A stretch of DNA of 59,355 nt from contig JBFYKH010000079.1 in assembly GCA_041306075.1 (NCBI GenBank), positions 1 through 59,355 on the forward strand. Direction: 5' to 3'. Under the pieces are notes generated by a model, which was not told where the DNA came from, did not search any database, and saw only the letters and a program-made list of their open reading frames with translations. This stretch comes from Candidatus Altiarchaeota archaeon. Its GTDB lineage: Archaea; Altiarchaeota; Altiarchaeia; IMC4; SCGC-AAA252-I15. A program made the position numbers and the translations under genes. This document shows positions 5,168 through 34,890 of the stretch, piece after piece. Numbering within the stretch: the stretch's first letter is position 1; each line of letters starts with the position of its first letter.

Positions 5168-5169
5168 CG

Positions 5170-6200: not shown

Positions 6201-6406
6201 ACCCGGTGATACTGCTCGTCGCCTTCGGCCTCGGCGCCCTCTACGGCAGGATGATTGGGATGCCGAGCCTCCCGTCCACGATAGTCGCCGGAGCCGCCAT
6301 CGCCGTTTTACTCGGCAACTACCCGTACTACAGCCTCCCGTTCGTTTCGGTCACTTATGCGGCCGCCCTCGCGGGGGCCCTGACTTTCGGAGGCAGGATG
6401 CAATGA
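6197..6406 (+). CDS. Small Ehb membrane subunit (EhbJ-like)
   Basis: 69 aa hydrophobic, LGNYPYY motif, overlapping neighbours. Confidence 0.55.
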   Translation: MNPVILLVAFGLGALYGRMIGMPSLPSTIVAGAAIAVLLGNYPYYSLPFVSVTYAAALAGALTFGGRMQ

Positions 6407-12109: not shown

Positions 12110-12132
12110 ATACGAGGGCGTAAGTTACTACC

Positions 12133-13056: not shown

Positions 13057-13060
13057 ACCC

Positions 13061-14359: not shown

Positions 14360-14509
14360 CGTGGGCCATAATAGGGAAAGGGGATATAAATCGGGCCCTT
14401 AGGGCGCCTTTGGCATGAACTGGGTTTATTAATGGGAGCAGACTAACAATATAACGCTATCACATGTGCGGTAGCATCATTGCGTAATCGCTTAGTGAGG
14501 TGTGAGATA

Positions 14510-20082: not shown

Positions 20083-21852
20083 ATGTGCGGGATAGCGGGT
20101 TACGTGGGCGGCAGGAACGCGCCGGTGGTCTTGTTCGACATGCTCAGGTGCCTTGAGTACAGGGGCTACGATTCAGCCGGCATCGCCTACATGGAGGGCG
20201 GGAGGATACGTATTCCGAAGGACAAGGGCAGGGTCGACGAGGTCCGGGCGAAACTGAAGCCAGAGGCCCTGAAAAGCAACATAGGCTTCGGCCACACCCG
20301 GTGGGCGACCCACGGGGCCCCCACCCAGCTTAACGCGCACCCGCACGCGGACTGCACCGGAGACTTCGCGGTGGCGCACAACGGCATCATCGAGAACCAC
20401 GCGGAACTGAGGGGGGAGCTTGAGGGGAGGGGGCACGAGTTCAAGAGCGAGACCGACACCGAGGTTATAGCCCACCTCCTGGAGGACTACTATGACGGCG
20501 ACCTCCTGGACGCGTTCGCGAGGGTCCTCGACAGGCTGAGGGGCAGCTACGCCCTGACCGTGATGTCCACGCACGAACCGGACAGGATACTCGTCGCGAG
20601 AAACGAGAGCCCGCTCATCGTAGGCCTCGGCAAGGGCGAGAACTACGTCGCATCCGACGCCCCGGCCTTCATAGCCCACACCAGGGAGGCGGTCATACTC
20701 GGCGACATGGAGTACGGCCTCGTCACGCGCGAGCGGGCCGAGTTCTACAGCCTCAAGTCCAGGGCGAAGATAAAGAAGAGGCCGGAGACGATAACATGGG
20801 ACGTGAAGGAGGCCGAGCGCGCCGGATACCACCATTTCATGCTCAAGGAAATCCATGAGGAGCCCCAGGCCGCGGCGAACGCGGTCAGGGACATGGAAGG
20901 CATAAGGAGGGTGGCGGGGAGGCTCGCCTCCTGCAGGAGGCTGTATTTCGTAGCCTGCGGCACCGCCTACAACGCCGGACTCTACGCCAAATACGCGGCG
21001 GAGGCCTTCGGCATCCAGGCCGAGGCGTCCATAGCCTCGGAGTTCAGGTACTCAACAGTCGAATCGGTCGGCGACGACTCTGGAGTCGTCGTGGTATCGC
21101 AGTCAGGGGAGACCGCGGACACCATCGCGGCCGCCAAGGAGGCGGGAAGACGGGGCGCTTACGTGGCCGCCGTCGTCAACGTGGTGGGCTCAAGCCTCGC
21201 AAGGTGCGCGGACGACGCCGTGTTCACCGGCTCCGGGCCGGAGATAGCGGTCGCGTCGACGAAGGCGTACATAGGCCAGCTCGCCTGCCTGGCGGCAGTC
21301 GTCCTGGAGCTCGCGAAGGCGACGATGAAGGCCGACGGGAAAACGTATGACGCCCACGCCGCCGAGCTCAGGAGCCTGAAGCCGAAGATTGAGGAGGCCC
21401 TCAAGGGGGCCCACTTGAGGGAGCGCGCCGAGGAGGAGGCGAACACGCACACCTTCTTCTTCGTGGGCCGCAGGGAGAATTATCCGACCGCGCTCGAGGG
21501 GGCGCTGAAGCTGAAGGAGATAACGTACGTGCACGCGGAAGGCTACGCCGCGGGGGAGCTGAAGCACGGCCCCCTCGCAGTCATGGGCAGGGACGTCACT
21601 GTGATAGCGGTGGTCCCGGACGGGCCCCTCCGGGCGAAGGTCGAGAGCAACATCGCCGAGATCAGGGCGCGGGGGGCGAAGGTCATAACCGTCGGCTCGG
21701 ACGGGGACTTCCGGGCCCCGAAGACGCTGCCCGCGTACGCGCCGATACTCAACGCGGCCCCCCTCCACCTCTTCGCATACTACATAAGCGTCCTCAAAGG
21801 CCTCGACCCGGACAAGCCGAGAAACCTCGCGAAGAGCGTCACGGTGGAGTGA
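20083..21852 (+). CDS. glmS: Glutamine-fructose-6-phosphate transaminase (isomerizing)
   Basis: MCGIAG start, YRGYDSAG, HTRWATHG, SQSGETADT, ELKHGP, C-terminal PRNLAKSVTVE. Confidence 0.97.
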   Translation: MCGIAGYVGGRNAPVVLFDMLRCLEYRGYDSAGIAYMEGGRIRIPKDKGRVDEVRAKLKPEALKSNIGFGHTRWATHGAPTQLNAHPHADCTGDFAVAHNGIIENHAELRGELEGRGHEFKSETDTEVIAHLLEDYYDGDLLDAFARVLDRLRGSYALTVMSTHEPDRILVARNESPLIVGLGKGENYVASDAPAFIAHTREAVILGDMEYGLVTRERAEFYSLKSRAKIKKRPETITWDVKEAERAGYHHFMLKEIHEEPQAAANAVRDMEGIRRVAGRLASCRRLYFVACGTAYNAGLYAKYAAEAFGIQAEASIASEFRYSTVESVGDDSGVVVVSQSGETADTIAAAKEAGRRGAYVAAVVNVVGSSLARCADDAVFTGSGPEIAVASTKAYIGQLACLAAVVLELAKATMKADGKTYDAHAAELRSLKPKIEEALKGAHLRERAEEEANTHTFFFVGRRENYPTALEGALKLKEITYVHAEGYAAGELKHGPLAVMGRDVTVIAVVPDGPLRAKVESNIAEIRARGAKVITVGSDGDFRAPKTLPAYAPILNAAPLHLFAYYISVLKGLDPDKPRNLAKSVTVE

Positions 21853-21920
21853 CTTCGCGAGGGTCCGAAGGAGCCGTGGCGACTGAGGCAGACTTGGCCA
21901 AGAGCGTCACTGTAGAATAG
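21823..21920 (+). repeat. Imperfect direct repeat of the glmS 3' end
   Basis: 21823-21852 (NLAKSVTVE*) vs 21891-21920 (DLAKSVTVE*); 21/30 nt identical. Confidence 0.9.
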
Positions 21921-21925
21921 GCGTC

Positions 21926-22564
21926 TCAGAGCCTCATAGTCTTCAGCTTCCCCCTGAGCTCGCGCAGCCTATCCCCGCGGATGACTGGCCCGTGGCCTGG
22001 GATTATCTCGTCCGCCGCGGCGAATATCTTCTTCATGGAGTCCAGGTATTCGCGGGGCAGGGGGTACTTCTTCGGCACCTCCCCGCCGTCTATCACGCTC
22101 TCCCTGACCGCGTCCCCGGCTATGACCACCAGCCCGCCATCAGTCTTGACCGCCACTGCTATGTGCTTTTCCATGTGTCCGGGCGTGTCCATGAACGAGA
22201 CCCCCGCGATGCCCGGGTCCGTCACGCCCGGGAACATCTCGACCCTGTTGCCGTCCTCGACATGCCAAACGGACGTGGGAGTGTAGATGACGGCCTTCGC
22301 GAAGAGGTAGTTGTTGTATATGTGGTCGAGGTGCATGTGGGTGTTCACCACCGTGTCGATGCCAGCGGGCTTCAGGCCGCGCTTCCCGAGCTCGGCCACG
22401 ACGACGTCGGCGTACCCCATGGCCCCCGGGTCGACGATGACGTTCCGGCCAGGCGCCCGCAGGAGGACGACTGCGCTGCAGCAGGCATTCGACACCTTGA
22501 GGCCGCCGTCCATGACGTCCACCCTAGTGCCCTCCCTGAGCACGTCCACCGCCGGGGCTTTCAC
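21926..22564 (-). CDS. MBL-fold metallo-hydrolase
   Basis: VDPG, THMHLDH, TPGH, AGDA, PGHG. Confidence 0.9.
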   Translation of the reverse strand: MKAPAVDVLREGTRVDVMDGGLKVSNACCSAVVLLRAPGRNVIVDPGAMGYADVVVAELGKRGLKPAGIDTVVNTHMHLDHIYNNYLFAKAVIYTPTSVWHVEDGNRVEMFPGVTDPGIAGVSFMDTPGHMEKHIAVAVKTDGGLVVIAGDAVRESVIDGGEVPKKYPLPREYLDSMKKIFAAADEIIPGHGPVIRGDRLRELRGKLKTMRL

Positions 22565-23316
22565 CCCAGGCCCCCCGCCGAAATGCTCAGCGTCATCCCG
22601 TCCACGGCCGCGGTCGTCCTCACGCCGGTCGCAGCCTGTATCCGCCCGGCCTCTCTCGCCGGGTCCTCGGCTAGCATCCTGACGCCGAAGTGTGTGAGCA
22701 CCAGATGGCCGGGCCGCGCCTCCGATGCTATCCGCTGCGCATCGTCTATGTTGAGGTGGGTGTCCGACGCCCGCCGCTTCGGGAATATGGTGTTGAGTAT
22801 GAGCATCCGGCTGCCCGCGTACTGCGCGACGACGTCCGGCGCGTACGCCGTGTCCCCCGAGTAAGTGACCCTCCCCTCCGGGGCCTCGAAGCGGAACCCG
22901 AGGCCCCCAGCATGGTTGTGCGTCGACAGGACGTCCACCCTGAGGCCGCGGACGGTGAAAGACGAGCCGCCGGCCGGGACCAGCGTCTCCACCGCCGAAC
23001 GGTGGTATTCCGAGATGTAGGGGACCACATCCTCCTGGAGGACGAGGAGGCCCTGCCTCCGGTTGAGGCCGTGAGTCATCGCCTCCACCATCACCTCCAC
23101 GTCGTTGTAGTGGTCGAGGTGCCTGTGGCTTGATATGACGCAGTCGAGCGTGCCCGGGTCGAGCCCGGCGTCAAGCGCCCTCACCAGTGCCCCGGGGCCG
23201 GGGTCGACGATGAGCCTGGCGCCCCCGAGCTGAAGCCAGATGCCGCCGGTATGCCGCCTCTGGGTGAGGAAGACGAATCTGCCGCCGCCGGTGCCGAGGA
23301 ACGTGACCTTGCCCAT
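22561..23316 (-). CDS. MBL-fold metallo-hydrolase (RNase Z-like)
   Basis: FLGTGGG, DPGPGAL, SHRHLDH, YSGDT, LTHFG. Confidence 0.9.
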   Translation of the reverse strand: MGKVTFLGTGGGRFVFLTQRRHTGGIWLQLGGARLIVDPGPGALVRALDAGLDPGTLDCVISSHRHLDHYNDVEVMVEAMTHGLNRRQGLLVLQEDVVPYISEYHRSAVETLVPAGGSSFTVRGLRVDVLSTHNHAGGLGFRFEAPEGRVTYSGDTAYAPDVVAQYAGSRMLILNTIFPKRRASDTHLNIDDAQRIASEARPGHLVLTHFGVRMLAEDPAREAGRIQAATGVRTTAAVDGMTLSISAGGLG

Positions 23317-23353
23317 GCAATGTATTTAAGCCGGACGGGTTTAAGTTTATCGG

Positions 23354-24031
23354 ATGAGGGCGGTCTGCGTCGGAGACATACACGGCGACCTCGACGCAGT
23401 CCGCAGGCTCCGAAACCGCATATCCGCCGCCGACTTCGACTACGTGTTCCTCCTCGGAGACTACAGCAGGGGCTACAGGGACCCGGACGAGAACCAGCGC
23501 GACATAAACGCCATACTGGAGGCGTTCAACGGGTTCAGGGTCTGGGCGCTGCCGGGAAACTGCGACCAGACGATGTCGGTCAGGACGCTAGAGGAGCGCG
23601 GAGTCTGCCTCCACAACAGGGCCCTGAGGCTCCCCGAGGCGACTGTAATAGGCCTCGGAGGCTCCAACGTCACCCCCTTCGGCACCCCATTCGAGCAGGA
23701 CGAGGTTCATCTCTCAGGGGCGCTAGAGGACCTGAACGCCGCCGTAGAGAAGCATTCGAGGGTCGTGCTCCTCACCCACGTGCCACCGAAGGACACCCGC
23801 TGCGACGCCATAGCCGGCGGCCACCACGTAGGCTCCACGGCAGTCAGACGGTACATAGAGGCGTGGAAGCCGGAATTGGCCTTATGCGCGCACGTACACG
23901 AGGCCGGCGGGGAGGAGGACATGATAGGCCATACGAGGATTGTCAACCTGGGGAGGCTATCCGACTGCCATGCCTGGGAGCTCACGGCGGCGGAACATAT
24001 AGGCGTCAAGCCGTACGATGAGCCCAAATAA
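23354..24031 (+). CDS. Calcineurin-like metallophosphoesterase
   Basis: GDIHG, LGD, PGNCD, THVPP, CAHVHE. Confidence 0.9.
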   Translation: MRAVCVGDIHGDLDAVRRLRNRISAADFDYVFLLGDYSRGYRDPDENQRDINAILEAFNGFRVWALPGNCDQTMSVRTLEERGVCLHNRALRLPEATVIGLGGSNVTPFGTPFEQDEVHLSGALEDLNAAVEKHSRVVLLTHVPPKDTRCDAIAGGHHVGSTAVRRYIEAWKPELALCAHVHEAGGEEDMIGHTRIVNLGRLSDCHAWELTAAEHIGVKPYDEPK

Positions 24032-24065
24032 GGGATTTATAATTGATGATTTCCATTTGTAAGCC

Positions 24066-25205
24066 ATGAACAAGAAGCTGTTCACAGCATTAGTAATAGC
24101 CATATATCTCCTGGCCGACTGCGTGGCGGCGAAGAGGATACTCTTCTACGAGGTCGGCGTAGGCACCTACACGCAAAGCAAAGAATATTCCAAGTTCGCC
24201 GCGGAGCTGAGGAAGCGGGGCTACGAGGTCGCATCGATAGAGAAGGGCGAGCTGACCAAGGAGAAGCTCGAGAACTACGACATACTGGTGATGCAGGACC
24301 TCAACAAGCAGCTGACGACGGGCGAGATTTCTGCGATAATATGGTTCGTCCTCCAGAAGGGCCGGGGCCTGTTCATCAACGGGGGAGGCGCCGGGAAGGC
24401 CAACCAGCTGACGATACCCTTCGGAGTCACGGTCGACGGTGGCACGCTCATAGACCAGACGGACGCCATACCCGCCCTCAAGGACAGGTCCAGTTTCACG
24501 GTCGGCAGGTTCATCGAGAATCCGATGACCAACAGCATGATACAGGGCGTCAGCAAGGTCGGATTCTACAAGGATTCCGGGCTCATACTCTCGGGGTCCA
24601 GCAAGTGCATCATGACCGGCAACTCCGACACTTACTCCGACACAGGCTCCTTCGCGGCCGGCAGCCAGCCGTGCCTGGCGGCGGCCGCCATATTCGGCGG
24701 AGGCCTCGTATTCACGCAGAGCGACGCGGACATGCTGGCGAACAAGTACCTGGAGGACTACAACAACAAGAACTTCGGCATGAACATAGTAGACTGGCTG
24801 AGCATATCCACGGAGAACGTGAGCCAGGAGAACAGCACCCAGGAGCTCATGATACAGATAAAGGAGATGCGGCTGGAGAACTCCAGGATGAAGGTGCAGA
24901 TAAAGCAGCTCACCGACGAGAAGACGGAGCTCGGGAAGCGCTACAACGACGCGTCCGCGCAGCTGTCGGAGGCGCAGCAGAAGCTGCAGGACGCCGAGGG
25001 CGAGATGATAGGGCCGTTCAGCAGGAACAACTGGGCGATAATAATACTCGGCGTGTTCATACTGCTCGGCGCCGTCGTCTACTCGAGGAAGAAGGGCACC
25101 GAGGTGAAGATAAAGGACGAGGACATACTCAACGAGCTGGGATACGAGCTTGACGGGGCCACAGGAGGGCCCGCCTCAGGAGCCCCCCAGGAGAAGAAGG
25201 GCTGA
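24066..25205 (+). CDS. Secreted DUF4350/GldG-like domain + coiled coil + C-terminal TM
   Basis: Signal peptide; LENYDILV, NQLTIPFGV, N..FGMNIVDWLS; coiled coil; WAIIILGVFILLGAVVYSRKK anchor. Confidence 0.65.
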   Translation: MNKKLFTALVIAIYLLADCVAAKRILFYEVGVGTYTQSKEYSKFAAELRKRGYEVASIEKGELTKEKLENYDILVMQDLNKQLTTGEISAIIWFVLQKGRGLFINGGGAGKANQLTIPFGVTVDGGTLIDQTDAIPALKDRSSFTVGRFIENPMTNSMIQGVSKVGFYKDSGLILSGSSKCIMTGNSDTYSDTGSFAAGSQPCLAAAAIFGGGLVFTQSDADMLANKYLEDYNNKNFGMNIVDWLSISTENVSQENSTQELMIQIKEMRLENSRMKVQIKQLTDEKTELGKRYNDASAQLSEAQQKLQDAEGEMIGPFSRNNWAIIILGVFILLGAVVYSRKKGTEVKIKDEDILNELGYELDGATGGPASGAPQEKKG

Positions 25206-25209
25206 GCAG

Positions 25210-25542
25210 TCAACCCATCCTAATCGTAGTCTCCCGCTTAGTCGAGGAGATTTTCGTGAGGAGCGCCTTGAACGTCTGGTCGTTTAGCTCCTTGAGCCGC
25301 CCCGCCTGATAGAGCTGTATCAGCATTATCTCGACCTGCCTTGCGAAGTCCGGCCTCGCGAGCCTGATGTTCGCCAGGCGCTCCCGGGCCTCGGGAGTCA
25401 TTATCTGCCGCATGATGAGCTTTATCTGCTCATCTGCCTGCTGGGCTTGGAGCTGCTCCTGCAGGGCGTCCCGGCGGGACTGGCCCTGCATCATCTGAAG
25501 CTCCCTTAGCCTGCGCTGGCGAATCTCGTCCAATTCAGACAT
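25210..25542 (-). CDS. PDCD5-like DNA-binding protein
   Basis: ELDEIRQRRL.EL; MTPEARERLANIRLARP; TTIR. Confidence 0.92.
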   Translation of the reverse strand: MSELDEIRQRRLRELQMMQGQSRRDALQEQLQAQQADEQIKLIMRQIMTPEARERLANIRLARPDFARQVEIMLIQLYQAGRLKELNDQTFKALLTKISSTKRETTIRMG

Positions 25543-25552
25543 TTTAGGTGGC

Positions 25553-25972
25553 TTACTCCTTCCGGGTTATCTTCGAGGAGAGCTTGTCCAGGTAAGACCT
25601 GCCCTTCGGGGTCACGGTCCTGCCGCTCTTGCCGGATGCCGTGAGCCCTGCGGCGTCAAGCTCCTTCATGAGGGTCCTTATGACCTTCCCCGAGCCGCGC
25701 CTGAACTTCTCCGGCTTGTGGCCGCGGTTCTTCCTGCCGCCGTAGACCGTCCTCAGCCTCTGCACGCCGACCGGCCCCTCCAGGTATATCTTCCTCAGGA
25801 GCGATGCGGCGCGGACCCACCACCAGTTCTCGTCCTGCGGCTTCCTCTCCTTGCTGACGCCGGTCTTCACGTACTGGGCCCAAGCGGGCATCTCCAGCTT
25901 GACGTTGTCCTTGAGGTCCTGCGCAGTCTCCGATATCAGCCTGTCCGATGGTGCGTCGTATACCGTTGCCAT
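25553..25972 (-). CDS. rps19e: 30S ribosomal protein S19e
   Basis: WAQYVKTGVSKERKP, WWWVRAASLLRKIY, YGGRKNRG. Confidence 0.96.
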   Translation of the reverse strand: MATVYDAPSDRLISETAQDLKDNVKLEMPAWAQYVKTGVSKERKPQDENWWWVRAASLLRKIYLEGPVGVQRLRTVYGGRKNRGHKPEKFRRGSGKVIRTLMKELDAAGLTASGKSGRTVTPKGRSYLDKLSSKITRKE

Positions 25973-25978
25973 TTTGTA

Positions 25979-26416
25979 TTATTCTTCGTATTTAACCAGC
26001 TCCTCCTTCGTGAAGAAGAGCGGAATCTCGCGTTCTGCCGACTCCTTGCTGTCCGACGAGTGTATTATGTTCTGGTCTATCCTCAGGCCGAAGTCGCCGC
26101 GTATGGTGCCCATGTCCGCCTTCGCGGGGTCTGTCTCGCCTATTATCTTCCTCGCGAGGGCGATGGCGCTCGACTGGTCCAGGACGTCCGTGTCCAACAC
26201 CACCAGGACCGACGGGTTGGTGGTCATCGCATGCACCAGGGGCTCGTAGAACGGCTTACCCTTGTGCTGGACGTAGAGGTCCTCCGCCATCTTGCGGCTC
26301 ATCCTCGATATCTTTAGGCCGGCGAGTCGTATCCCGTGCTTTTCGAAGCGCGTGATTATCTCGCCGACCAGGCCTCTTAGGACCGCGTCCGGCCTGATGA
26401 TGATTATCGTCTTCAT
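25979..26416 (-). CDS. ndk: Nucleoside diphosphate kinase
   Basis: RPDAV.RGLVGEII.RFE, GTIRGDFG, NIIHSSDS. Confidence 0.93.
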   Translation of the reverse strand: MKTIIIIRPDAVLRGLVGEIITRFEKHGIRLAGLKISRMSRKMAEDLYVQHKGKPFYEPLVHAMTTNPSVLVVLDTDVLDQSSAIALARKIIGETDPAKADMGTIRGDFGLRIDQNIIHSSDSKESAEREIPLFFTKEELVKYEE

Positions 26417-26745
26417 TTACCTGCCTTTTTCTTGGGCTTGGTTTCCTCCTTCCTGGCCTTCTTGGCCGTTTTCGCCGGCTTATCGGCCGTTGCAGGCTTG
26501 TCTGCCTTCGGCTTCTCGGCCATAGCGGCCTTGGGGGCCTCGGTCTTCTGCCCCGCGGTCTTCATCCGCGCCTCCTTGTCGTCGAAGTACGACTTCGTCC
26601 AGCGCGTGGCCCTCGGCGTCCTGCCGAGCTTCACGAGGTTCTTGTAGCATTTGCTGGAGCAGAAGTGGAGGGCCTTGCCCTTGCTGGTGACGAATATGTA
26701 CTCCGTGCCCCTCGGTATCCCGTATCCGCAGAAGTTGCAGTCCAT
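26413..26745 (-). CDS. rpl24e: 50S ribosomal protein L24e (with Lys/Ala-rich tail)
   Basis: CNFCG..I..GT, FCSSKC, PR.TRWT. Confidence 0.93.
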   Translation of the reverse strand: MDCNFCGYGIPRGTEYIFVTSKGKALHFCSSKCYKNLVKLGRTPRATRWTKSYFDDKEARMKTAGQKTEAPKAAMAEKPKADKPATADKPAKTAKKARKEETKPKKKAGK

Positions 26746-26747
26746 TT

Positions 26748-26939
26748 TCAGGTGAGCGGCTTAGCCTCCCTCTCCGTCTCCATCAGGTCGATTATGTCGC
26801 CTTCCCTGACAGGCGTCCTCACGTTCCGGCGTATTATGCGGCCTTTGCTCTCGCCGTCCTGCACCTTGCACATGACCTGCATGACCTCGCCGTAGATGCC
26901 GGTCCGTCCTATGACCTTAACTACCTCGGCTGCGACCAT
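26748..26939 (-). CDS. rps28e: 30S ribosomal protein S28e
   Basis: AEV..VIGRTG.YGEV.QV, RNV..PVREGDI, ETEREA. Confidence 0.95.
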   Translation of the reverse strand: MVAAEVVKVIGRTGIYGEVMQVMCKVQDGESKGRIIRRNVRTPVREGDIIDLMETEREAKPLT

Positions 26940-26940
26940 T

Positions 26941-27300
26941 TTACTTCCTGAGCTCCCTTACCTTCTCCGCAACGTCGGCGACATCGTCCTTCGCCTTGCC
27001 TTCGTCCAGTATGCATCCGGCGGCGGTCGGGACGTGTATGCCTATGGCGGAGCCTATCTCGGCCTTCGGCGCGTACAGGTACGGTATCTTCTTCTCCTCG
27101 CAGAGCATCGGCAGGTGCATGACTATCTCCGGCGGCTCGACGTCGCTGCCGATTATCACCAGCTTCGCGTTGCCGCGCTCGACTGCCTTGGTGACTTCGT
27201 TCGTGCCCTTCCTTATCTTTCCGCTGTCCCTTGCCTTCTCCAATGCCCCGAGGGCCTTCTCCTGAAGCTCCTTCGGCACCTCAAACTTCACGTAACCCAT
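26941..27300 (-). CDS. rpl7ae: 50S ribosomal protein L7Ae
   Basis: [37 protein letters not shown]. Confidence 0.96.
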
Positions 27301-27436
27301 CTTACTTCACCTCATATCATCGGCTCACAAGCTAAGAAACCCCTCGCGGACGATTGTCCGCCGCAGCCCGACGAGTCGGGCCGCGTACCGGGGAATAAGC
27401 CTAAGTGTCTAATGATAGGTACTACCCATATATAAA
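27301..27436 (-). promoter_or_regulatory. TATA box and structured ~100-nt 5' leader of rpl7ae operon
   Basis: TTTATATAT (minus, 27428-27436); hairpins at 27346-27361 and 27366-27381; GAGGTGA SD. Confidence 0.55.
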
Positions 27437-27526
27437 GCCTGCTGGCACGGGATTCGCCGACGCCTCCGGACAGGTTAGGCCGCGCGGAGGTTTATAACCG
27501 GGTTCCGACTACTATAGTTGGACGCC

Positions 27527-28249
27527 ATGGACTACAGGAGCTTCGAGGACGGGGCCGACAGGGGATTCTTCTGGTTCCTGGCGAAGGAACGCCTCATCGG
27601 CGCCCTATTCAAGAAGGCTCTGCCGCACCCTACGGCGGACTCGAGGGTGCTGGACGTGGGCGCCGGCATGGGCGAGGACGTGCCTGCCATATCCGCGGCC
27701 GGCCGGGTATACGCCATCGACGTCAGCCAGAACGCCCTTGACGCGATACCGGACGGCCTGGTTGCCGAGAAAAAGCTCTGCGACGCCGGCCGGATAGGAT
27801 ACCCGGACGGCTTCTTCGACACTGCCGTGGCCTTCGACGTACTGGAGCACATAGAGGACGACGTCGCGGCAATAGGGGAGATAAGGCGGGTGCTGAAGCC
27901 CGGGGGCCACTTCGTCTTCACAGTCCCGGCCTTCGACTTCATCTTCAGCGCCCACGACAAGGCGCTGCACCACCACAGGAGGTACGGGATGGGGGGGCTG
28001 TCAGGGAAGCTGGACGGCTTCAGGAGGATTGAATCCGGGTACTGGATGTGCCTGCTCTTCGTCCCAGTGGCGATGATGAGGCTCCTGAAGAGCGGTGAGA
28101 AGACGCCCCGCTCGGAGGGGATGCCGCTGCCGAAGTGGGCGAACGCGCTCCTTTACAGGATTGCGTCGGCCGAGACCCGGCTGATTGCCGGGGGCGTGAG
28201 GCTGCCGATAGGCCTGACGATATACGGGATTTACCGGAAGAATGCCTGA
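27527..28249 (+). CDS. Class I SAM-dependent methyltransferase
   Basis: VLDVGAGMG, FDVLEHIEDD, LKPGG, VPAF...S.HD...HH.RRY. Confidence 0.9.
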   Translation: MDYRSFEDGADRGFFWFLAKERLIGALFKKALPHPTADSRVLDVGAGMGEDVPAISAAGRVYAIDVSQNALDAIPDGLVAEKKLCDAGRIGYPDGFFDTAVAFDVLEHIEDDVAAIGEIRRVLKPGGHFVFTVPAFDFIFSAHDKALHHHRRYGMGGLSGKLDGFRRIESGYWMCLLFVPVAMMRLLKSGEKTPRSEGMPLPKWANALLYRIASAETRLIAGGVRLPIGLTIYGIYRKNA

Positions 28250-28300
28250 GGACGCCCGCACCGGCGGGCGTTTTTAACCGCCGAGAGGAAAGTGTTTACC

Positions 28301-29218
28301 ATGCCCCGCATACCCATCGTGGCATTGGGCACGGTAGCCCTGGACACCATCCAGACGCCGTTCAGGAGGGTGGAGAACGTGTTCGGCGGCAGCGGCACGT
28401 ACTTCGGGATCGCAGCAGGCTTTTTCTCAAGATGCGGCCTCGTGAGCGTCGTCGGCGGGGACTTCCCGAAGGAGAACCTGAAGTTCCTCGCCCACCGCGG
28501 CATAGACCTCTCGGGCGTCGAGGTGGCGGACGGCAGGACGTTCCACTGGGAGGGCTCTTACGAGCACGACATGAACGCGGCGACCACGCTCAGGACGGAC
28601 CTGAACGTCCTCGCGTCGTTCAGGCCTAGGATACCGAAGGAATACAGGCACTGCGACTTCCTGTTCCTGGCGAACATCGACCCCACGATACAGCTTGAGG
28701 TCCTCGAGGAGGTGAAGCCGAAACACAGCCTCTGCGACACCATGAACTACTGGATTTCCTCCAAGCGGGAGGAGCTCACCAGGGTCTTCGAGTCTGTGGA
28801 CGGGATAGTCGTGAACGAATGCGAGGCGAGGCAGTACTCGGGGACCCCGAACCTCATCAAGGCGGGGAGGATGCTCGCGGGGATAGGGGGCGGCAAAGTC
28901 ATAATAAAGAAGGGCGAGCACGGCTCCCTGTTCTTCTCGGGCGACGAGTTCTTCGCGGCCCCGGGATATCCGGTGGCGGACGTGGCGGACCCGACTGGCG
29001 CAGGAGACAGCTTCGCCGGCGGGACAATCGGCCACCTCGCGAAACACGGGGTGTTCGACGACGAGCACGTCAAGAAGAGCATGGCAATCGGCGCTGTCGT
29101 GGCAAGCTACGTCGTCGAGGGATTCAGCATAGACGGCATAAAGGACAGGGTGCTGGAGGACATACAGAGGCGCTACGACGGCTACAGGAGGATGGTCGCC
29201 TTCGACCACGTCATCTGA
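28301..29218 (+). CDS. PfkB family carbohydrate/nucleoside kinase
   Basis: GGSGTY, IIKKGEHG, DPTGAGDSFAGG. Confidence 0.92.
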   Translation: MPRIPIVALGTVALDTIQTPFRRVENVFGGSGTYFGIAAGFFSRCGLVSVVGGDFPKENLKFLAHRGIDLSGVEVADGRTFHWEGSYEHDMNAATTLRTDLNVLASFRPRIPKEYRHCDFLFLANIDPTIQLEVLEEVKPKHSLCDTMNYWISSKREELTRVFESVDGIVVNECEARQYSGTPNLIKAGRMLAGIGGGKVIIKKGEHGSLFFSGDEFFAAPGYPVADVADPTGAGDSFAGGTIGHLAKHGVFDDEHVKKSMAIGAVVASYVVEGFSIDGIKDRVLEDIQRRYDGYRRMVAFDHVI

Positions 29219-30655
29219 TTACTTGTGCCCAAAGCAGAATACGAGCTTCCCGCCTTCCTTGGAGTCGAGCCTGCAGAACCCGTACCGTTCGAACTGTATT
29301 ATCGCCCCGACCTGGAGGCCCGCCGCCTGCGGCTCGCAGTAGCCCCGGTCCACGGAGCCGTCGGGCTTCAGGACCTCGCACGCGACATAGTCCTGGAGGC
29401 ACTGTATCTTCCTCGCCTTCTTGTGCTCCCCCCGGCAGTGGGAGGCCGTAACCCGCCCGTCCCCGACGGACTTCACCTCTATGCAGGCCAATCCCATCAG
29501 CTTGACGACCTCACCCGCCGACAGGGTCGAATCCGCCCGGCAGATGTACAGGGGGGCGCCTTCCCGGATGCTCTGCTCCCTCACGCCCCGCCCCTTGTGG
29601 GTAGGGTGCAGCGGCATCCGGACGGTCTTGCCGGGCATGTCTTCCACGGTGAGCGCGACCGGGTCCGGTATGAAGAAGTACCTGTCCGTCTTCTCGTCCA
29701 AGAGGCTCCTGTTGAGCGCATACAGGGTGTCCATGCTGACGCCGGCCGCGCTGTCCGAGAGGCCGAGGGAGAGCATGAACTGCCGTACCGCCTCGGGCTG
29801 TATCCCCCGGCGCCTCAGGCCACGGAGAGTCGGGAGGCGGTGGTCGTCCCAGCCCCGGAAGAGCCCGGAAGCTATGTCCGCCGCCATCTTGCTGGTCGAG
29901 AACTTCCCGGTCTCGTCGAGCTGTATCCTCCCCCACAGTATGACTTCCGGGTAATTCCAGCCGAGGTAGTCGTAGACGTACTTCTGCTTTAGGCCTGAGT
30001 CCATGAGGTCTATCCCCCGTATGATGTGGGTGACGCCGCGGACGTGGTCCTCTATCGCGCTCTCGAAGTCGAGCATCGGCCAGACCCTGTATTTGCGGCC
30101 GACTAGGGGGTGCTCGTCCTCGATTATCCTGAACGCCACCCAGTCCCTGAGGGCCGGGTCAGGGTGCTTTATGTCGGTCTTAATCCTCAATGCCGCCTCG
30201 CCCTCCTTGTAGTCCTTGAACATGGCGTTCCAGCGGCGCATGTGCTCCTCTGGGGCGAGCTCCCGGCACGGGCAGGCTATCATCTGGTCCTTCTTCGTCT
30301 TGAACGCCTCCCGCTCGCACGTGCAGACGTAGGCGTGGCCGTCCCCTATGAGCCGGACCGCATACTGGTAGTAGGCGTCTATGTTCAGGGAGGCTGTGAC
30401 CACCTCGTCGGGGACGCAGCCGAGCCACTGGCAGTCGTCCTGAATCCACTGGTAGGCCTCCTTCACCGGCTTCTTCGTCCGGGGGTCGGTGTCGTCGAAC
30501 CGGAGTATGAACCGGCCCGAGTACTTCGTCGCGAGGTAGTGGTTCGTAACCACGCCCCGGGCGTGCCCGATGGTCAGCGTCCCGTTCGGGTTCGGCGCGA
30601 ACCTCAGGACCGCCCCCTTCGGGTCCCCGGGCAGACGCATCGTATCCTCGGCCAT
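29219..30655 (-). CDS. gltX: Glutamyl-tRNA synthetase (archaeal type, short N-terminus)
   Basis: RFAPNPNG.L.IGH, LRFDDTDP, WP.LDF, THIIRG, QFER.GFCRLD. Confidence 0.93.
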   Translation of the reverse strand: MAEDTMRLPGDPKGAVLRFAPNPNGTLTIGHARGVVTNHYLATKYSGRFILRFDDTDPRTKKPVKEAYQWIQDDCQWLGCVPDEVVTASLNIDAYYQYAVRLIGDGHAYVCTCEREAFKTKKDQMIACPCRELAPEEHMRRWNAMFKDYKEGEAALRIKTDIKHPDPALRDWVAFRIIEDEHPLVGRKYRVWPMLDFESAIEDHVRGVTHIIRGIDLMDSGLKQKYVYDYLGWNYPEVILWGRIQLDETGKFSTSKMAADIASGLFRGWDDHRLPTLRGLRRRGIQPEAVRQFMLSLGLSDSAAGVSMDTLYALNRSLLDEKTDRYFFIPDPVALTVEDMPGKTVRMPLHPTHKGRGVREQSIREGAPLYICRADSTLSAGEVVKLMGLACIEVKSVGDGRVTASHCRGEHKKARKIQCLQDYVACEVLKPDGSVDRGYCEPQAAGLQVGAIIQFERYGFCRLDSKEGGKLVFCFGHK

Positions 30656-30656
30656 G

Positions 30657-30995
30657 TTACATCAGCTTAAGCCCCCCGGTTATACGGTCGAGTTCAGACT
30701 CCTCAGCTGGCCCGAGGCCGACGCACGTCTTCGTGCCGGGTTCCAGCTGCGTGTGGCCCGCGTCCTCTATGAGGACAGCGGCTATCCCCGCCCGCTTTCC
30801 TTCGCTAAAGACAGACATCATCTCCGCCTCGTCCCTGACCTTCACCACCGTCTTCTTCTGGCCGGCGGCAATCCAGTCGGCGCGATACCTGCTCTTGTCC
30901 GCGGCCGAGAGCGCGGCGTGCGCCACCTGCGCCGCCAGCTTCCCCTTCCCCATCTTGAGGTCGCACCGGACCGCTATAACCTGCTTCAAGGCCAT
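30657..30995 (-). CDS. pth2: Peptidyl-tRNA hydrolase Pth2
   Basis: MGKGKLAAQVAHA, GQKKTVVKV, IEDAGHTQ..PGT.TC.GLGP. Confidence 0.95.
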   Translation of the reverse strand: MALKQVIAVRCDLKMGKGKLAAQVAHAALSAADKSRYRADWIAAGQKKTVVKVRDEAEMMSVFSEGKRAGIAAVLIEDAGHTQLEPGTKTCVGLGPAEESELDRITGGLKLM

Positions 30996-31036
30996 CCAAG
31001 CTATAAATAGGGGCCCGCAATATTAATAGGATTCGG

Positions 31037-32059
31037 ATGAAGGAGCTCTGGGTGAAGGCCGACGGGGAGCGGCCGTGGGAGGAGAGGAAGAAGGCTGTGA
31101 CCGCGGCCCTGGAGGCTGGGGCGGACGCAGTCATCGTCAACTCCGGCGAGGAGGGGAAGGCGAGGGGCCTGGGGAGAATCAGGATTGTGTCGTCAGGCGG
31201 GGACGCCGACCTGGTGCTGGAGAAGGACGCGTTCTACAGGGAAATCCGGTCCAAGGCGGACGAGAAGGACATCGCAGCCCTCGGCCTGAAGGCCAAGTAC
31301 GTGGCGGTGAACGCCAGGGACTGGAGGGTCATCCCCCTCGAGAACCTCATTGCAGCGCTCCAGGGGAAGTGCAGGATAATAGTGGAGGTTGCCGACGCAG
31401 AGGAGGCGAAGACCGCCCTGGAGACGCTGGAGGTCGGGGCCGACGGAGTCCTGGTGTCGGATGCGAAGGGGGCTGGGAAGGTGAGGGACGTCGTGGACGC
31501 CATGTCGTCGGAGAGGCTGAAGCTGACGCCGGTGAAGATAAAGTCCCTGAAGCCGGTGGGCATGGGCGACAGGGTCTGCGTGGACACCGCCAGCATGCTC
31601 GCCGTCGGCGAGGGGATGCTCGTCGGCAGCCAGGGCTCCAGCATGTTCCTGGTGCACAGCGAAAGCATAGAGACCGAGTACGTCGCCGCCAGGCCGTTCA
31701 GGGTGAATGCGGGCGCGGTGCACGCGTACATCAGGCTCCCGGGGAACAAGACAAAGTACCTGAGCGAGGTGAAGACGGGCGACGAGGTGCTCGCAGTCGA
31801 CGCGAAGGGGGCTACGAGGAACGTGATAGTCGGCCGCGCCAAGGTGGAGAAGAGGCCGCTCATACTCGTGGAGGCGGAGGCCGGCGGCGCTAAATTGAAG
31901 ACGCTCCTGCAGAACGCGGAGACCATACTGCTCGTGAGCCCTGAGGGGAAGCCGGTCTCCATCGCGAGGCTGAAGGCCGGGGACATGGTGCTCGCCTACA
32001 TCGAGGAGGGAGGCAGACACTTCGGCATGAAAGTCAAGGAGACTATAGCCGAGAAGTAG
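31037..32059 (+). CDS. aroB': 3-dehydroquinate synthase II (archaeal oxidative deaminating type)
   Basis: DWRVIPLENLIA, GDRVCVDT, RPFRVNAGAVHAY, LQNAETI, RHFG. Confidence 0.94.
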   Translation: MKELWVKADGERPWEERKKAVTAALEAGADAVIVNSGEEGKARGLGRIRIVSSGGDADLVLEKDAFYREIRSKADEKDIAALGLKAKYVAVNARDWRVIPLENLIAALQGKCRIIVEVADAEEAKTALETLEVGADGVLVSDAKGAGKVRDVVDAMSSERLKLTPVKIKSLKPVGMGDRVCVDTASMLAVGEGMLVGSQGSSMFLVHSESIETEYVAARPFRVNAGAVHAYIRLPGNKTKYLSEVKTGDEVLAVDAKGATRNVIVGRAKVEKRPLILVEAEAGGAKLKTLLQNAETILLVSPEGKPVSIARLKAGDMVLAYIEEGGRHFGMKVKETIAEK

Positions 32060-32133
32060 CATCGTTTCCGCCAGCGCTTTGCGAGCAAAAGGGCTGCGGG
32101 ATGAAAGTCGAGGAAACCATTGCCGAGAAATAG
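32024..32133 (+). repeat. Imperfect direct repeat of the aroB' 3' end
   Basis: 32024-32059 (GMKVKETIAEK*) vs 32098-32133 (GMKVEETIAEK*); 30/36 nt identical. Confidence 0.92.
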
Positions 32134-32175
32134 GCGGCAGGTCATATTTTAACGCGGCTTTCTCGATGTTAACTG

Positions 32176-34890
32176 ATGCTCAAGCAGGGCTCCAAAAAGG
32201 CCGATGAGGCGGCAGCCGGCGTCGAAGGAACGCTCCCGAAGCCCGCCGAGTTCAACGGCATCATGACCGAGCAGGCGCTCCTGCAGCGGATATTCGGCCA
32301 GAACGTCACCGCCGTGGCCACCGACAGGTTCATCAACAAGTCCCGCGACGCCTACAACCTCCCGTTCCTGGCGAGGGAGGTCACGCAGAACTGGGTCGAC
32401 CACAACCCGAGGCGCGGCACCCTGGACGGCGTCGAGGTGAAGGTGGAGGAGAACGCCGGGGCGGGCATGCACAGGGTGACCATCACGGGCGGATGGGACA
32501 TAACCGACGTGACCGGCCTCACCCACCTGCACTCCGACAAGCCCGGGGAGGGCGAGTCGGCGGGCGGCAACGGCATCGGCCTCAAGCAGGTGGCGATACG
32601 GTATCTGAGGGACTTCGCGGTCACGAGGTTCGACGTGGACGGCAACAGCGACGGCAGGGGCTTCAGGGTGTCTTACCGCCTCGTCAAGGCTTCAGAGGCC
32701 AACCTGGAACTCGGGTCCAGGGGCGTCCCACAGAGGCTCAGGCACGACTGGCTGGTGGCCCAGCTTGCCGACGCCCCCGAGAACGCGGGCGGAAAATGCT
32801 CATACACCATCGAGACAGGGAACGAGGACATCGTGCGGTCCCTCAGGCAGGTGGAGAGGATAGGCGTCTCGGCCCGGAACCCGCTCCTTGCGAACCCGGA
32901 CTTCGATAACGGGAAGGGCTCGCTCAGGTGGCAGACGACGGCGGAGCTAGAGGCCGGGGAGCCGACCGGCCTGTTCATCAACGGCCAGGCGTGGAGCTTC
33001 ATGCAGGACGGGCCCACAATCGAAGGCCACTTCAGGGGCCCGGAGGGCGTCACCGTCAGACTGAACGACCTGAAGCACGACATGAGCATAGACCGGCCGC
33101 CCATAGACAGGTACAGGCTCGAACGGTACGTGGACGGCCTCGTCTCGTCGATGGGCAGGGACGAGCTCGTAGGGCAGCTGAAGAAGTCCGAGCACATATG
33201 GGGGGCCCTGGACGACAGGAGGTACGGCTCCGACAGGCTGGGCTCGTTCGTAGTCATAGAGAAGATGGTGGAGAAGCTCGTCTGGAGGCACAGCTTCAAG
33301 GCCGACGACTTCAACCGCGAATTCCAGGGAAGGACGTACGTGTGCCGCAACGAGGGAGTCTCCGACGAGCAGGTGGCCAGCCTGAGGGCGGATGGTTGCG
33401 TAGTCTGCCCCCCCTACTTCGAGCGCCTCGGGGTCCCGAGGGCGTCTGGCAGGTTCAGCTCCTTCGACGAGGCCGCCATGAAGAAGCCGGAGCTGACAGG
33501 CTACAAACAGAAGGAGCTGGCGCGGGAGTTCGGCTTCGTAGTGGCTGCGGAAGGCCTGGGGGACGCGACAGGGAAGGCCCTCCTGGAGCGGATGATGGAG
33601 GGGCTCGCCGACGCCAAGCCGTCCGTCGAGGAGACTGGCGCCAACAGGTTCAGGGTCAGGTTGAAGGGGAGGATTCCGGAGGATGCGCTGTTCCACCCGC
33701 TCCACAGCCCCAAGACGGGCGAGCAGAAGCGCCTCCATTTCATACGGGGGGTTGTGAAGGCAGGCCTCGAATCAGGGGCTATGAAGAGCGTGTTCACGTC
33801 GACTGGCGAATACGTCACCACGTACGCCACGCAATACGATTCCGTGGCCGGGGAGCACCTGCTCGTGGCGAGGAACGTGAGGAACGAGGACGCCGGCGGC
33901 GCGTTCATCGAGTTCGAGCTTAAGCCTGAGCTCTCGGAGAAGTTTAGGGTCATCGCAGGAGGGGCCAAGAAACCAGCCGAGGCGGAGCGCCAGTCCGGGG
34001 GCGAGCACCAGGGGAGAAGCCGGCGGCTCAGGAGGATGATGGCAGCCGCAGCGGGCGTCGCGCTCACGGCCGCAGTCGGCGCGCTCGTCTTTGTGAAGCC
34101 CGGCGGCCAGGGCAATGGCCTGGCCGATAAGCCTAGGGTGGAGGCTCAAGCAGGAGCGCCGTCCGCGCAAGCCAAGATGGTTGTCGCATCGTCTGCGCAG
34201 GAGTTGGAGGCCGCGGTCAGAATCCTTGAGAATATCATCCCTGCGCGGGCTGCGGACGACAAAGGCCCGGCCGAACAGTACGGCGCCTGGAAGACGGGAG
34301 GGGACTTCTACGGGCAGGCCGCAGGCGGGGCGGAGTACCTTAAGGGCGGGACCTTAAGGGAGCTGATAATGCAGCATAACAGCGCCCGGGTAGAGCCTGC
34401 CGGCGAGGGGGAGGACGGCCTGAATGCGACGCTTCAGGCCTTGGCGAACAGGCTGGCGCCCCCGGAGGACAGGGTGGAAGGCTTCGAGATAGTCCTTAAG
34501 CCTGCGGAGAGGCAGCTTGCGCAGCTCGGCCTCATGAGGAAGTACCTCCACATCGCCACTGGCGCGGCAGTCCCCCATGACTTCTTTATCTTCAGGGGCA
34601 GGGGGGCGAAGGGCGTAAACATAGGCGGCGACAAGGCTATAGGATTCCACGAGGGGATGCTGGACACCCTATTCGAGAGCGCGGTCGGGACCGGGGCGCA
34701 CGAGCTCGCCCACACGCACTCCATGGGCCACGGCAGGGAGTTCATCGCCGCACTGCAGTCGACGATGGGCGAGATAGCCAGGAGGCTCGGCGACATAAAC
34801 GAAAGGTTGGATAGCGGCTCCGGGCTGACCGGAGACGACAGGGCGCTCTTGGACATCAGGGAGGGGTGGGACAGCCTCAGGGCGAAGTGA
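32176..34890 (+). CDS. Orphan multidomain protein: GHKL-like ATPase, central TM, C-terminal HExxH metallopeptidase-like domain
   Basis: REVTQNWVD (N-box-like), GGNGIGLK (G2-like); hydrophobic MMAAAAGVALTAAVGALVFV; AHELAHTHSMGHGREF. Confidence 0.6.
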   Translation: MLKQGSKKADEAAAGVEGTLPKPAEFNGIMTEQALLQRIFGQNVTAVATDRFINKSRDAYNLPFLAREVTQNWVDHNPRRGTLDGVEVKVEENAGAGMHRVTITGGWDITDVTGLTHLHSDKPGEGESAGGNGIGLKQVAIRYLRDFAVTRFDVDGNSDGRGFRVSYRLVKASEANLELGSRGVPQRLRHDWLVAQLADAPENAGGKCSYTIETGNEDIVRSLRQVERIGVSARNPLLANPDFDNGKGSLRWQTTAELEAGEPTGLFINGQAWSFMQDGPTIEGHFRGPEGVTVRLNDLKHDMSIDRPPIDRYRLERYVDGLVSSMGRDELVGQLKKSEHIWGALDDRRYGSDRLGSFVVIEKMVEKLVWRHSFKADDFNREFQGRTYVCRNEGVSDEQVASLRADGCVVCPPYFERLGVPRASGRFSSFDEAAMKKPELTGYKQKELAREFGFVVAAEGLGDATGKALLERMMEGLADAKPSVEETGANRFRVRLKGRIPEDALFHPLHSPKTGEQKRLHFIRGVVKAGLESGAMKSVFTSTGEYVTTYATQYDSVAGEHLLVARNVRNEDAGGAFIEFELKPELSEKFRVIAGGAKKPAEAERQSGGEHQGRSRRLRRMMAAAAGVALTAAVGALVFVKPGGQGNGLADKPRVEAQAGAPSAQAKMVVASSAQELEAAVRILENIIPARAADDKGPAEQYGAWKTGGDFYGQAAGGAEYLKGGTLRELIMQHNSARVEPAGEGEDGLNATLQALANRLAPPEDRVEGFEIVLKPAERQLAQLGLMRKYLHIATGAAVPHDFFIFRGRGAKGVNIGGDKAIGFHEGMLDTLFESAVGTGAHELAHTHSMGHGREFIAALQSTMGEIARRLGDINERLDSGSGLTGDDRALLDIREGWDSLRAK

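Follow-up and report, generated by a model that had tools for sequence, protein, structure and literature searches.

Integrative elements that replace the 3' end of a gene are well known from e14 and phage 21, both of which act at icd. Non-autonomous, att-flanked elements occupy the 3' end of rlmH (orfX), in the case of the staphylococcal cassette chromosomes (SCC) and pseudo-SCC, and the 3' end of fda in Streptococcus thermophilus, in the case of the cis-mobilizable elements (CIMEs), while Tn7, which carries its tns genes, inserts at attTn7 about 25 bp past the glmS stop codon with a 5-bp duplication. Here we describe two sites in a 59,355-nt stretch of DNA (the window; G+C content, ~62%) from an Altiarchaeota-like archaeon, one at glmS and the other at aroB', the gene for 3-dehydroquinate synthase II (DHQS-II). 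At both sites the stop codon is followed by 38 nt and then by a second copy of the last 9 to 11 sense codons plus stop. This tail-insert-tail layout recurs in other lineages and at other genes, and it represents a real, apparently undescribed kind of 3'-end insertion rather than chance or an assembly error.

The modules resemble e14 and phage 21 in that the insertion affects the final codons of a housekeeping gene, in that a functional tail is paired with a synonymously different one, and in that both empty and filled alleles exist. They differ in that no integrase was seen where we checked, in inserts that go down to 34 to 40 nt, in their many targets, in the variable length of the duplication, and in the constraint on the second tail. 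With SCC and the CIMEs they share the lack of a recombinase in the element, direct repeats that include the gene end, and tandem arrays; SCC and the CIMEs, which are presumably mobilised in trans, differ in having near-identical core sites of one recombinase family, in comprising kilobases of DNA, and in being bacterial. As with Tn7, the C-terminal coding sequence of glmS marks a hot spot for insertion just behind the gene, but the glmS module duplicates 27 to 33 nt of the coding tail and contains no transposition genes. Replacement of a gene 3' end by an integrating element is thus already known. Apparently new are hairpin-only cassettes of 34 to 40 nt that are maintained by selection, the fact that they recur at several housekeeping genes of Altiarchaeota and DPANN archaea, the constraint on the second tail, and the connection with a hairpin family whose stems are invariant and which also forms tRNA-intron cores.

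The coordinates of the two modules are given in Table 1, in which R denotes a relative of the window found at loci L382, L383, and L384 (L numbers refer to the loci compared). The period from copy to copy is 68 nt at glmS and 74 nt at aroB', and a six-frame scan of every open reading frame (ORF) tail against the whole window found tail copies for these two genes only. All sequence statements of the first-pass annotation about the two sites, including the out-of-frame position of the second copies, were confirmed, whereas the two short signals that it took to be shared did not hold up. The pentamer C(T/A)TCG is at glmS the start of CTTCGCGAGG, 10 nt that abut the stop codon and repeat the tail start (positions 21825 to 21834) in inverted orientation without a mismatch. 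The 8-mer AATAGGCG, proposed as a common terminus, occurs a third time in the window, and the match is most likely due to chance; at aroB' it resembles a downstream flank that is conserved in relatives (AAATAGGCT in L036 and the start of the next gene, ATGAATAGGCG, in L033), and it is also found within the guide of a putative C/D small RNA (sRNA) in L313.

At glmS, the tail and its stop codon are enclosed in hairpin 1, and such a stop-abutting inverted repeat is unique to glmS among the ORF ends of the window. Perfect inverted tail copies of 11 to 14 nt abut the stop codon in L004, L033, L194, and L036 as well, and weaker copies of 7 nt occur in L002 and L003, both of which are without insert. 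In the fold of the window/R/L004 alignment, one compensatory pair supports hairpin 1 (in L004) and two support hairpin 2. No copy of the glmS insert was found outside orthologs.

Table 1. Positions of the two tail-insert-tail modules and of neighboring genes in the window
Feature	Position	Strand	Remarks
glmS tail copy 1	21823..21852	+	AAC CTC GCG AAG AGC GTC ACG GTG GAG TGA; functional tail + TGA; stop codon 21850-52
glmS insert	21853..21890	+	38 nt
glmS tail copy 2	21891..21920	+	GAC TTG GCC AAG AGC GTC ACT GTA GAA TAG; DLAKSVTVE + TAG; frame +2
Hairpin 1, glmS	21825..21862	+	CCTCGCGAAG (21825-34, tail start) pairs with CTTCGCGAGG (21853-62)
Hairpin 2, within glmS insert	21865..21888	+	RNAalifold consensus of window, R, and L004
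Candidate 23-codon frame	21848..21920	+	GTG overlapping glmS stop (gaGTGA) to end of tail copy 2; translation putative
aroB' tail copy 1	32024..32059	+	GMKVKETIAEK + TAG; stop codon 32057-59
aroB' insert	32060..32097	+	38 nt
Hairpin H in aroB' insert	32065..32096	+	TTTCCG CCAGCGCTTT gcgagc AAAAGGGCTG
aroB' tail copy 2	32098..32133	+	GMKVEETIAEK + TAG; frame +2
glmS	20083..21852	+	589 aa, ends ...NLAKSVTVE before the stop; Pfam SIS and GATase domains
aroB' (DHQS-II)	31037..32059	+	340 aa; PF01959, E = 2e-132
Metallo-beta-lactamase-fold gene	21926..22564	-	Convergent to glmS; Pfam annotation
904-aa gene downstream of aroB'	32176..34890	+	No Pfam match; neighbor absent at R locus

The differences between first and second tails are those of coding sequence. 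As the first-pass annotation had counted, the two copy pairs of the window differ at 15 nt, with two amino acid changes (N>D and K>E) and no difference at the second position of any sense codon; 10 of the 13 differences within sense codons fall at third positions (P = 0.0016 against an expectation of 1/3). Across 13 copy pairs, most of which were found by amino acid similarity, so that the synonymous excess is inflated, third positions account for 54 of the 62 nucleotide differences (P = 8.5e-10 against 0.5), 49 codon changes are synonymous and 8 nonsynonymous, and stop codons are replaced by other stop codons. Two tests are less biased, namely, the pairs of the window, which were detected at the nucleotide level, and the comparison of the orthologous second glmS copies of the window and R. 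Because both agree with the third-position excess, simple decay of a dead copy is excluded, and the claim of the first-pass annotation stands insofar as the second copies do bear the marks of coding sequence.

Inheritance of the modules can be followed in R, whose GlmS and AroB' proteins are 90% and 92% identical to those of the window and which has diverged from it at 38 to 42% of 4-fold sites; the closest species-level relatives of the window in the genome collection have 68 to 78% protein identity. R is collinear with the window over 19.0 to 32.13 kb and carries both modules there in the same layout. At glmS, the insert is again 38 nt long (as it is in L004) and differs at 5 of 38 nt, compared with ~40% expected under neutrality (P = 3e-4). 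The first tail copy differs at 2 nt, and the second has six substitutions, all six of them synonymous (P = 3.5e-5 in a simulation of six random substitutions keeping the peptide), so this copy is under constraint rather than in decay. At aroB', all 28 stem positions of the hairpin agree between the window and R, and the stems are the same in L035 and L195, while the loop contains indels; the period is 74 nt in the window and 93 nt in R, and the second copy has four nonsynonymous and two synonymous codon changes. Each second aroB' copy shares the lineage-specific residue of its own first copy (Ala in the window, Glu in R), which hints at exchange between the tail copies. A similar comparison outside this pair involves L033 and L194, in which an insert termed X differs at 3 of 35 nt compared with 53% at 4-fold sites. 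The 38-nt inserts, whose hairpins show compensatory changes, are conserved well above the neutral rate and are no inert scars; inserts like these and X are either constrained or recently shared. The collinearity of R and the window ends exactly at the stop codon of the second aroB' copy; beyond it (from 32134 in the window and from 19320 in L383), R has a 1,072-aa gene on the other strand.

The modules of R are identical in three assemblies from different samples (L382, L383, and L384), and the layout as such is seen in MEGAHIT, SPAdes, JGI, and ENA assemblies of unrelated samples. As both modules are present in three independent assemblies of R, a chimera of two strains, which had been named as a possible artefact, is ruled out. 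More generally, one might regard the second tails as neutral debris of a replication slip followed by decay, or as the product of an assembly that joined two strains, and tandem arrays and identical copies at some loci could be read in this way. The third-position excess rejects neutral decay, though, and the second copy and the insert are conserved between the window and R far above the neutral rate, in a structure that persists across assemblers and samples. This explanation is therefore largely refuted, and we give it almost no weight.

The glmS layout was found in 4 of 12 Altiarchaeota lineages (window/R, L004, L005, and L012) and in none of 10 non-Altiarchaeota genomes (bacterial or other archaeal). 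The eight other Altiarchaeota and the ten bacterial or other archaeal glmS loci have a single tail, even with 10-kb flanks, and no glmS tail copy was found within 10 kb downstream other than those of two filled alleles at 0.8 and 1.3 kb. L004 has a 30-nt copy identical to copy 1 behind its 38-nt insert. In L012, a TAG stop codon is followed by 760 nt with ORFs of 199 and 52 aa (cargo at 4355 to 5109) and then by a tail copy (AGA AAC CTC GCC AAG TCG GTT ACA GTC GAA TAA) with two synonymous differences from copy 1; the 199-aa ORF has a weak, nonsignificant match to AbiEii-type nucleotidyltransferases (E = 0.067). In L005, 1,296 nt with a response-regulator-like gene (cargo at 4393 to 5658) precede a copy with four synonymous differences. 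The L005 cargo encodes a 421-aa protein with a receiver-like domain (a weak match), the stop codon of which owes its existence to a synonymous change, ctg>cta, within the second tail copy, and a convergent gene resembling histidine kinases adjoins. Despite these different inserts, the left edge of the second glmS copy lies at the same codon, within 3 nt, in the window, L004, L005, and L012, and the direct repeats span 27 to 33 nt.

At aroB', the layout is present in at least eight lineages (window, R, L033, L194, L356, L035, L036, and L195). Three tail copies are found in L033 and L194, separated by two related inserts, X and Y, the order of which is swapped between the two loci (periods of 75/74 nt in L033 and 74/75 nt in L194); in both, the last copy retains the ATGA stop/start overlap with the next gene. 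L356, from a public MAG (metagenome-assembled genome), contains an X-type array; a run of Ns at ~20250 to 20350 masks the middle of this array and hence its copy number. The inserts of L035 and L195 are the same hairpin as in the window, and L036 has a further insert. The duplicated length varies from 24 to 54 nt across lineages. Single-tail alleles exist in L193, L196, L113, L034, and others, and L001 to L003 are empty as well, whereas L012 and L005 represent alleles filled with 0.76 to 1.3 kb; both kinds had been suggested by the first-pass annotation as something to look for in relatives. Its notion of a fixed 38-nt spacing, on the other hand, is contradicted by insert lengths of 34 to 135, 760, and 1,296 nt in relatives. 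A metagenome scan for further aroB' loci gave no new cases among the matches listed. Two genes past the aroB' locus of L193, at 11504 to 14422, lies an RtcB RNA ligase gene with an intein (Intein_splicing between two RtcB segments).

Further cases, for which the annotation had proposed to search, extend the layout to four other genes. In trpE of an Altiarchaeales MAG (L357, 18830 to 18999), the last 15 codons plus stop, a segment that begins at an ATG and ends with TGA, are present as two identical 48-nt copies; the 74-nt insert between them contains two hairpins, and the second copy retains the native trpE-trpG junction. The gene for aCPSF1, a beta-CASP/KH ribonuclease (a 641-codon frame on the minus strand of L274, with the gene end at plus-strand position 2888), has a strongly recoded second tail, LDTVRLK plus stop, 159 nt farther downstream, in which 9 of 27 nt differ, all synonymously, with five codon changes that include cgc>agg. 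In a Woesearchaeota MAG (L289), a 73-nt unit is repeated in tandem at a class II aminoacyl-tRNA synthetase gene, and one gene in L270 shows the tail-insert-tail layout, too. Overall, at least six unrelated genes are affected; 242 kb of control loci from outside the Altiarchaeota gave no such case.

The first-pass annotation had interpreted the two sites as attL-insert-attR remnants or non-autonomous mini-elements, formed by a site-specific integrase that acts in trans, targets the 3' ends of the two genes, and brings a recoded replacement tail. This interpretation is supported in part, namely, by the glmS repeats of 27 to 33 nt with a left edge that is constant within 3 nt across four lineages, the existence of empty alleles, the cargo-bearing alleles (one with the AbiEii-like ORF, at E = 0.067 not significant), and the recoded tails, which recall e14 at icd. 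Other findings speak against it: the inserts are constrained, selection having preserved hairpin-only inserts of one size over deep divergence, and the second copy shows no decay. Since the second glmS tail has been constrained since the split of the window and R, it is unlike a displaced att remnant. No recombinase was found among the Pfam-annotated genes around R and L193 to L198 or in the L005 and L012 cargo, a screen that did not extend to the remainder of the window with its large unannotated ORFs, to the 8-kb hairpin loci described below, or to most other loci, and two scans of viral collections with the insert sequences gave nothing linked. Moreover, at least six unrelated targets would need as many specificities, and these together with the 24- to 54-nt range of the aroB' duplication are hard to square with one site-specific enzyme. 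We therefore consider an integrase of this kind unlikely and, given this misfit (no recombinase where checked, many genes, variable aroB' length, and constraint), favor cassettes that move by recombination, as set out below.

The inserts themselves offer a further lead. In sequence, the aroB' insert represents a hairpin family that is widespread among archaea, here called H, with the motif TTTTCCG-CCAGCGCTTT-loop-AAAGGGCTG (the version of the window opens with TTTCCG and is the only copy there). A pattern scan with one genome per species gave at least 120 loci, examined as 8-kb loci L235 to L354; approximately 55 or more of the matches listed carry the full motif with the TTTTCCG leader, the others being chance-level bacterial matches. 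Hosts of the full motif are Woese-, Aenigm-, Micr-, Pace-, and Iainarchaeota, Thermococcus, Thermoplasmata, Methanobacteriota, and Altiarchaeota. The stems are invariant across these archaeal phyla, whereas the loops measure 3 to 35 nt and are of GNRA type in Thermococcus. Among the matches listed, there are several copies per locus, and several lie at contig ends (examples of H copies are L279, 2743 to 2773; L303, 476 to 505; and L241, 4268 to 4294). No Rfam family covers the hairpin in L279, in L303, in 15 further loci, or in the window, and the full-text literature gave no description of H or of recoded tail duplications in archaea, which is not proof of absence.

Copies of H occur in four kinds of surroundings. 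First, ARAGORN places H in the introns of at least eight tRNA genes (Gly, Asp, Arg, Thr, Cys, Ser, and His), always in the CAGCCC...GCGCTGG-CGGAAAA orientation and 1 to 2 nt past the 5' splice site, where it forms the 5' core of the intron; Rfam supports a tRNA with a 45-nt insert in L279. Second, in L248, L292, L296, L303, and L341, H lies 3 to 4 nt past tRNA 3' ends. Third, H occupies the D'-C' loop of a putative box C/D sRNA in L313 (~470 to 640) and L237 (~6050 to 6220), on the minus strand relative to the hairpin as written; the putative sRNA reads GUGACGA ... CUGA, hairpin H, UGAUGA ... CUGA, with a terminal stem, and its second guide has AAUAGGCG. Fourth, H lies directly behind stop codons, and here orientation matters: copies in the CAGCCC-first orientation abut the stop codon without duplication (L319, L280, and L263), while in all five protein-gene cases with TTTTCCG first (window/R, L035, L195, L270, and L289) the gene tail is duplicated around the hairpin. 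Flank duplications were also found at the 5' end of a tRNA-Asn gene (L290) and in L277. Duplications around H comprise either 0 nt or 14 to 55 nt, depending on orientation.

Small palindromic dispersed elements, such as the repetitive extragenic palindromes and bacterial interspersed mosaic elements (REP/BIME), Correia elements, Rickettsia palindromic elements, and miniature inverted-repeat transposable elements (MITEs), provide a close comparison for H. Like them, H is short, palindromic, multicopy, often located at contig ends, and tolerated behind stops and in RNA genes. It differs from them in that its stems are invariant across archaeal phyla and not species specific, in that it has neither terminal inverted repeats nor a short target duplication of fixed length, and in that one orientation comes with a 14- to 55-nt gene-tail duplication. 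Archaeal tRNA introns with a bulge-helix-bulge, for which Fujishima and colleagues are said to have proposed an "intron transposition" in 2010, share with H its role as 5' intron core in at least eight tRNA genes in one orientation. In contrast to these introns, H at aroB' has the opposite orientation relative to the transcript, and removing any of the hairpins restores no sensible reading frame.

Taken together, a possible explanation, which we prefer tentatively and at somewhat less than an even chance, is that the modules are cassettes with a tail on either side, which enter a conserved gene tail, and spread, through homologous recombination. Each module would be a short structured cassette behind a stop codon, with the last 8 to 12 codons plus stop on each side; the upstream copy would complete the enzyme, and the downstream copy would retain the original junction with the following sequence. 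Such an arrangement could result from a Campbell-type or double-crossover insertion of DNA that brings its own tail copy, and as the incoming DNA would carry this copy, no dedicated enzyme in the window would be needed. The insert might be no more than a hairpin, as at both sites of the window, or it might comprise genes, as in the glmS modules of L012 and L005. Since the two flanks resemble the tail of any ortholog, the module could move between related lineages whatever their gene order. The second copy may be overwritten repeatedly from functional tails of insert-free alleles, which would explain both the nearly synonymous differences between copies and inserts that are more alike than neutral DNA. 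Recombination of such cassettes would account for the recoding, the patchy distribution, the swapped order of inserts, and their similarity, and the variable duplication at aroB' (24 to 54 nt) fits homology-based insertion better than a fixed crossover. The data show the layout, its inheritance and recurrence, the empty and filled alleles, the constraint on insert and second tail, and the place of the aroB' insert in the hairpin family; the route of recombination, the direction of transfer, and the origin of the first duplication at a new gene are what we infer from these patterns.

Several points weigh against cassettes of this kind, in addition to the way in which most copy pairs were found (see above). 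Neither a donor molecule nor a circular form nor an insert-free allele in the same population was seen, and the right-hand homology would be just 24 to 55 nt. Recombination does not account for the first duplication at a new gene, and it leaves unexplained the perfect inverted tail copy that abuts the stop codon in six loci, as well as the clustering of unit lengths at 68 to 75 nt. The identical copies in L004, L289, and L357 look like fresh duplications made in place. Finally, the constraint on the second glmS copy requires frequent overwriting, and translation would be simpler.

These last points lead to the strongest rival, in which the module is a functional 3'-end structure, a duplicated gene end plus hairpin insert that was made in place and became fixed for its function, and the second tail is read by ribosomes, which would preserve its coding character. 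Ribosomes could reach it by re-initiation at a GTGA or ATGA overlap, from an ATG of its own, or by bypassing, and the module might serve to insulate the transcript or to process it, with the signals of the two neighboring genes preserved. The second glmS copy does evolve like coding sequence between the window and R; the window, R, and L004 share an open frame of 23 codons that starts at the overlapping GTG; frames of 23 to 25 codons with an ATGA overlap or a TGA-nnn-ATG arrangement exist in L033 and L194, and one of 36 codons with an ATGA overlap exists in L035. The duplicated segment of L357 runs exactly from ATG to TGA, the hairpins show compensatory changes, the inserts are constrained, and duplication in place fits the identical copies just mentioned. 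However, the frame relation at aroB' varies (74 nt in the window, 93 nt in R, 74/75 nt in L194, and 75/74 nt in L033), and the insert portion of these frames, including the 23-codon frame at glmS, is not conserved as protein. In L005, L012, and L270 the second copy lies in no plausible ORF and yet has only synonymous differences, whereas the second aroB' copy has four nonsynonymous changes between the window and R, and a peptide or extension that repeats the tail of an enzyme offers no evident benefit. On balance, we find this rival rather unlikely.

A number of other candidates were rejected. Bulge-helix-bulge splicing does not fit the plain hairpins seen at both sites in minimum-free-energy folds and by inspection (no dedicated motif search was run), nor does the frame arithmetic, since excision of hairpin 1 would insert ~13 codons and excision of the insert alone leaves the stop codon. 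Read-through or frameshifting into the second copy is incompatible with periods of 68, 73, 74, 75, and 93 nt, which give no constant frame, and no slippery site was apparent by eye. A conserved microprotein across the whole insert is rejected as well: between the window and L004 there is no third-position bias in the insert part of the frame, the same 16-mer is read in one frame in the window and in other frames in L035 and L195, and the three changes between X and X' are all nonsynonymous. A diversity-generating retroelement would restrict differences to the adenines of its template copy and have a reverse transcriptase close by; here the differences affect all bases, are synonymous, and concern housekeeping genes, and no reverse transcriptase was found among the annotated neighbors. 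Off-target integration of CRISPR spacers can generate "neo-CRISPR" repeat-spacer-repeat units, and the geometry here is similar, with a repeat of 24 to 55 nt, an insert of 34 to 40 nt, and the repeat again. Unlike in such units, the repeat length varies within a genome (~30 versus ~36 to 40 nt in the window), the inserts are structured and, as in L033 and L194, related, the copies are recoded, and no cas genes or arrays are nearby; no CRISPR array was found in the window. The defining features of Tn7 and of integron attC sites are absent. As for a virus or plasmid origin, scans of viral contigs gave either chance-level 16-mer matches without a hairpin partner or nothing.

With regard to the remainder of the window, no tRNA or tmRNA gene was found in it, and in Rfam 15 it has no match at gathering score, neither site being covered even at E <= 1. 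The stop codon of the metallo-beta-lactamase-fold gene lies 5 nt from that of the second glmS tail copy. An ExxxNxxD string in the N terminus of the 904-aa protein (REVTQNWVDHN) recalls, by eye only, a motif of ATPases. At 27465 to 28265, the window has ~800 nt without counterpart in the otherwise collinear R, comprising an ORF at 27518 to 28249 (243 aa, TTG start) between L7Ae-like and PfkB-type kinase genes; in a related contig, a LemA-family gene occupies this position. Families of direct repeats with a 42-nt period fill three blocks, ~1.5 to 1.8 kb apart, at 55550 to 59220 and are probably repeat-rich paralogous coding sequence.

There is a real chance that these modules amount to something categorically new, although we would lean against it. 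A related proposal, to which we likewise assign a low probability, is an undescribed class of tiny archaeal hairpin cassettes that sit in tRNA introns, in sRNA loops, and behind stop codons and that, when entering in sense orientation, bring a second tail that is still in use. Such a tail might be translated by ribosomes that re-initiate at the overlapping start or bypass the hairpin holding the stop codon, or it might regularly be swapped in as the working tail by recombination. If this class exists, it would represent a new way for a mobile element to occupy an essential gene harmlessly, or a new form of 3'-end recoding. If recombination of tail-flanked cassettes is the correct explanation, conserved gene tails would be universal landing pads for small cassettes and gene cargo, which could pass between archaeal lineages with no need for a dedicated integrase and in any gene order, and this would connect tRNA-intron "transposition," dispersed palindromic repeats, and 3'-end insertions. 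If, alternatively, ribosomes translate the second tail, essential metabolic genes of an uncultivated phylum would be the site of recoding or of a micro-ORF phenomenon. Either way, recoded tail copies, which gene callers and annotators ignore, mark recombination events and insertion hot spots in MAGs.

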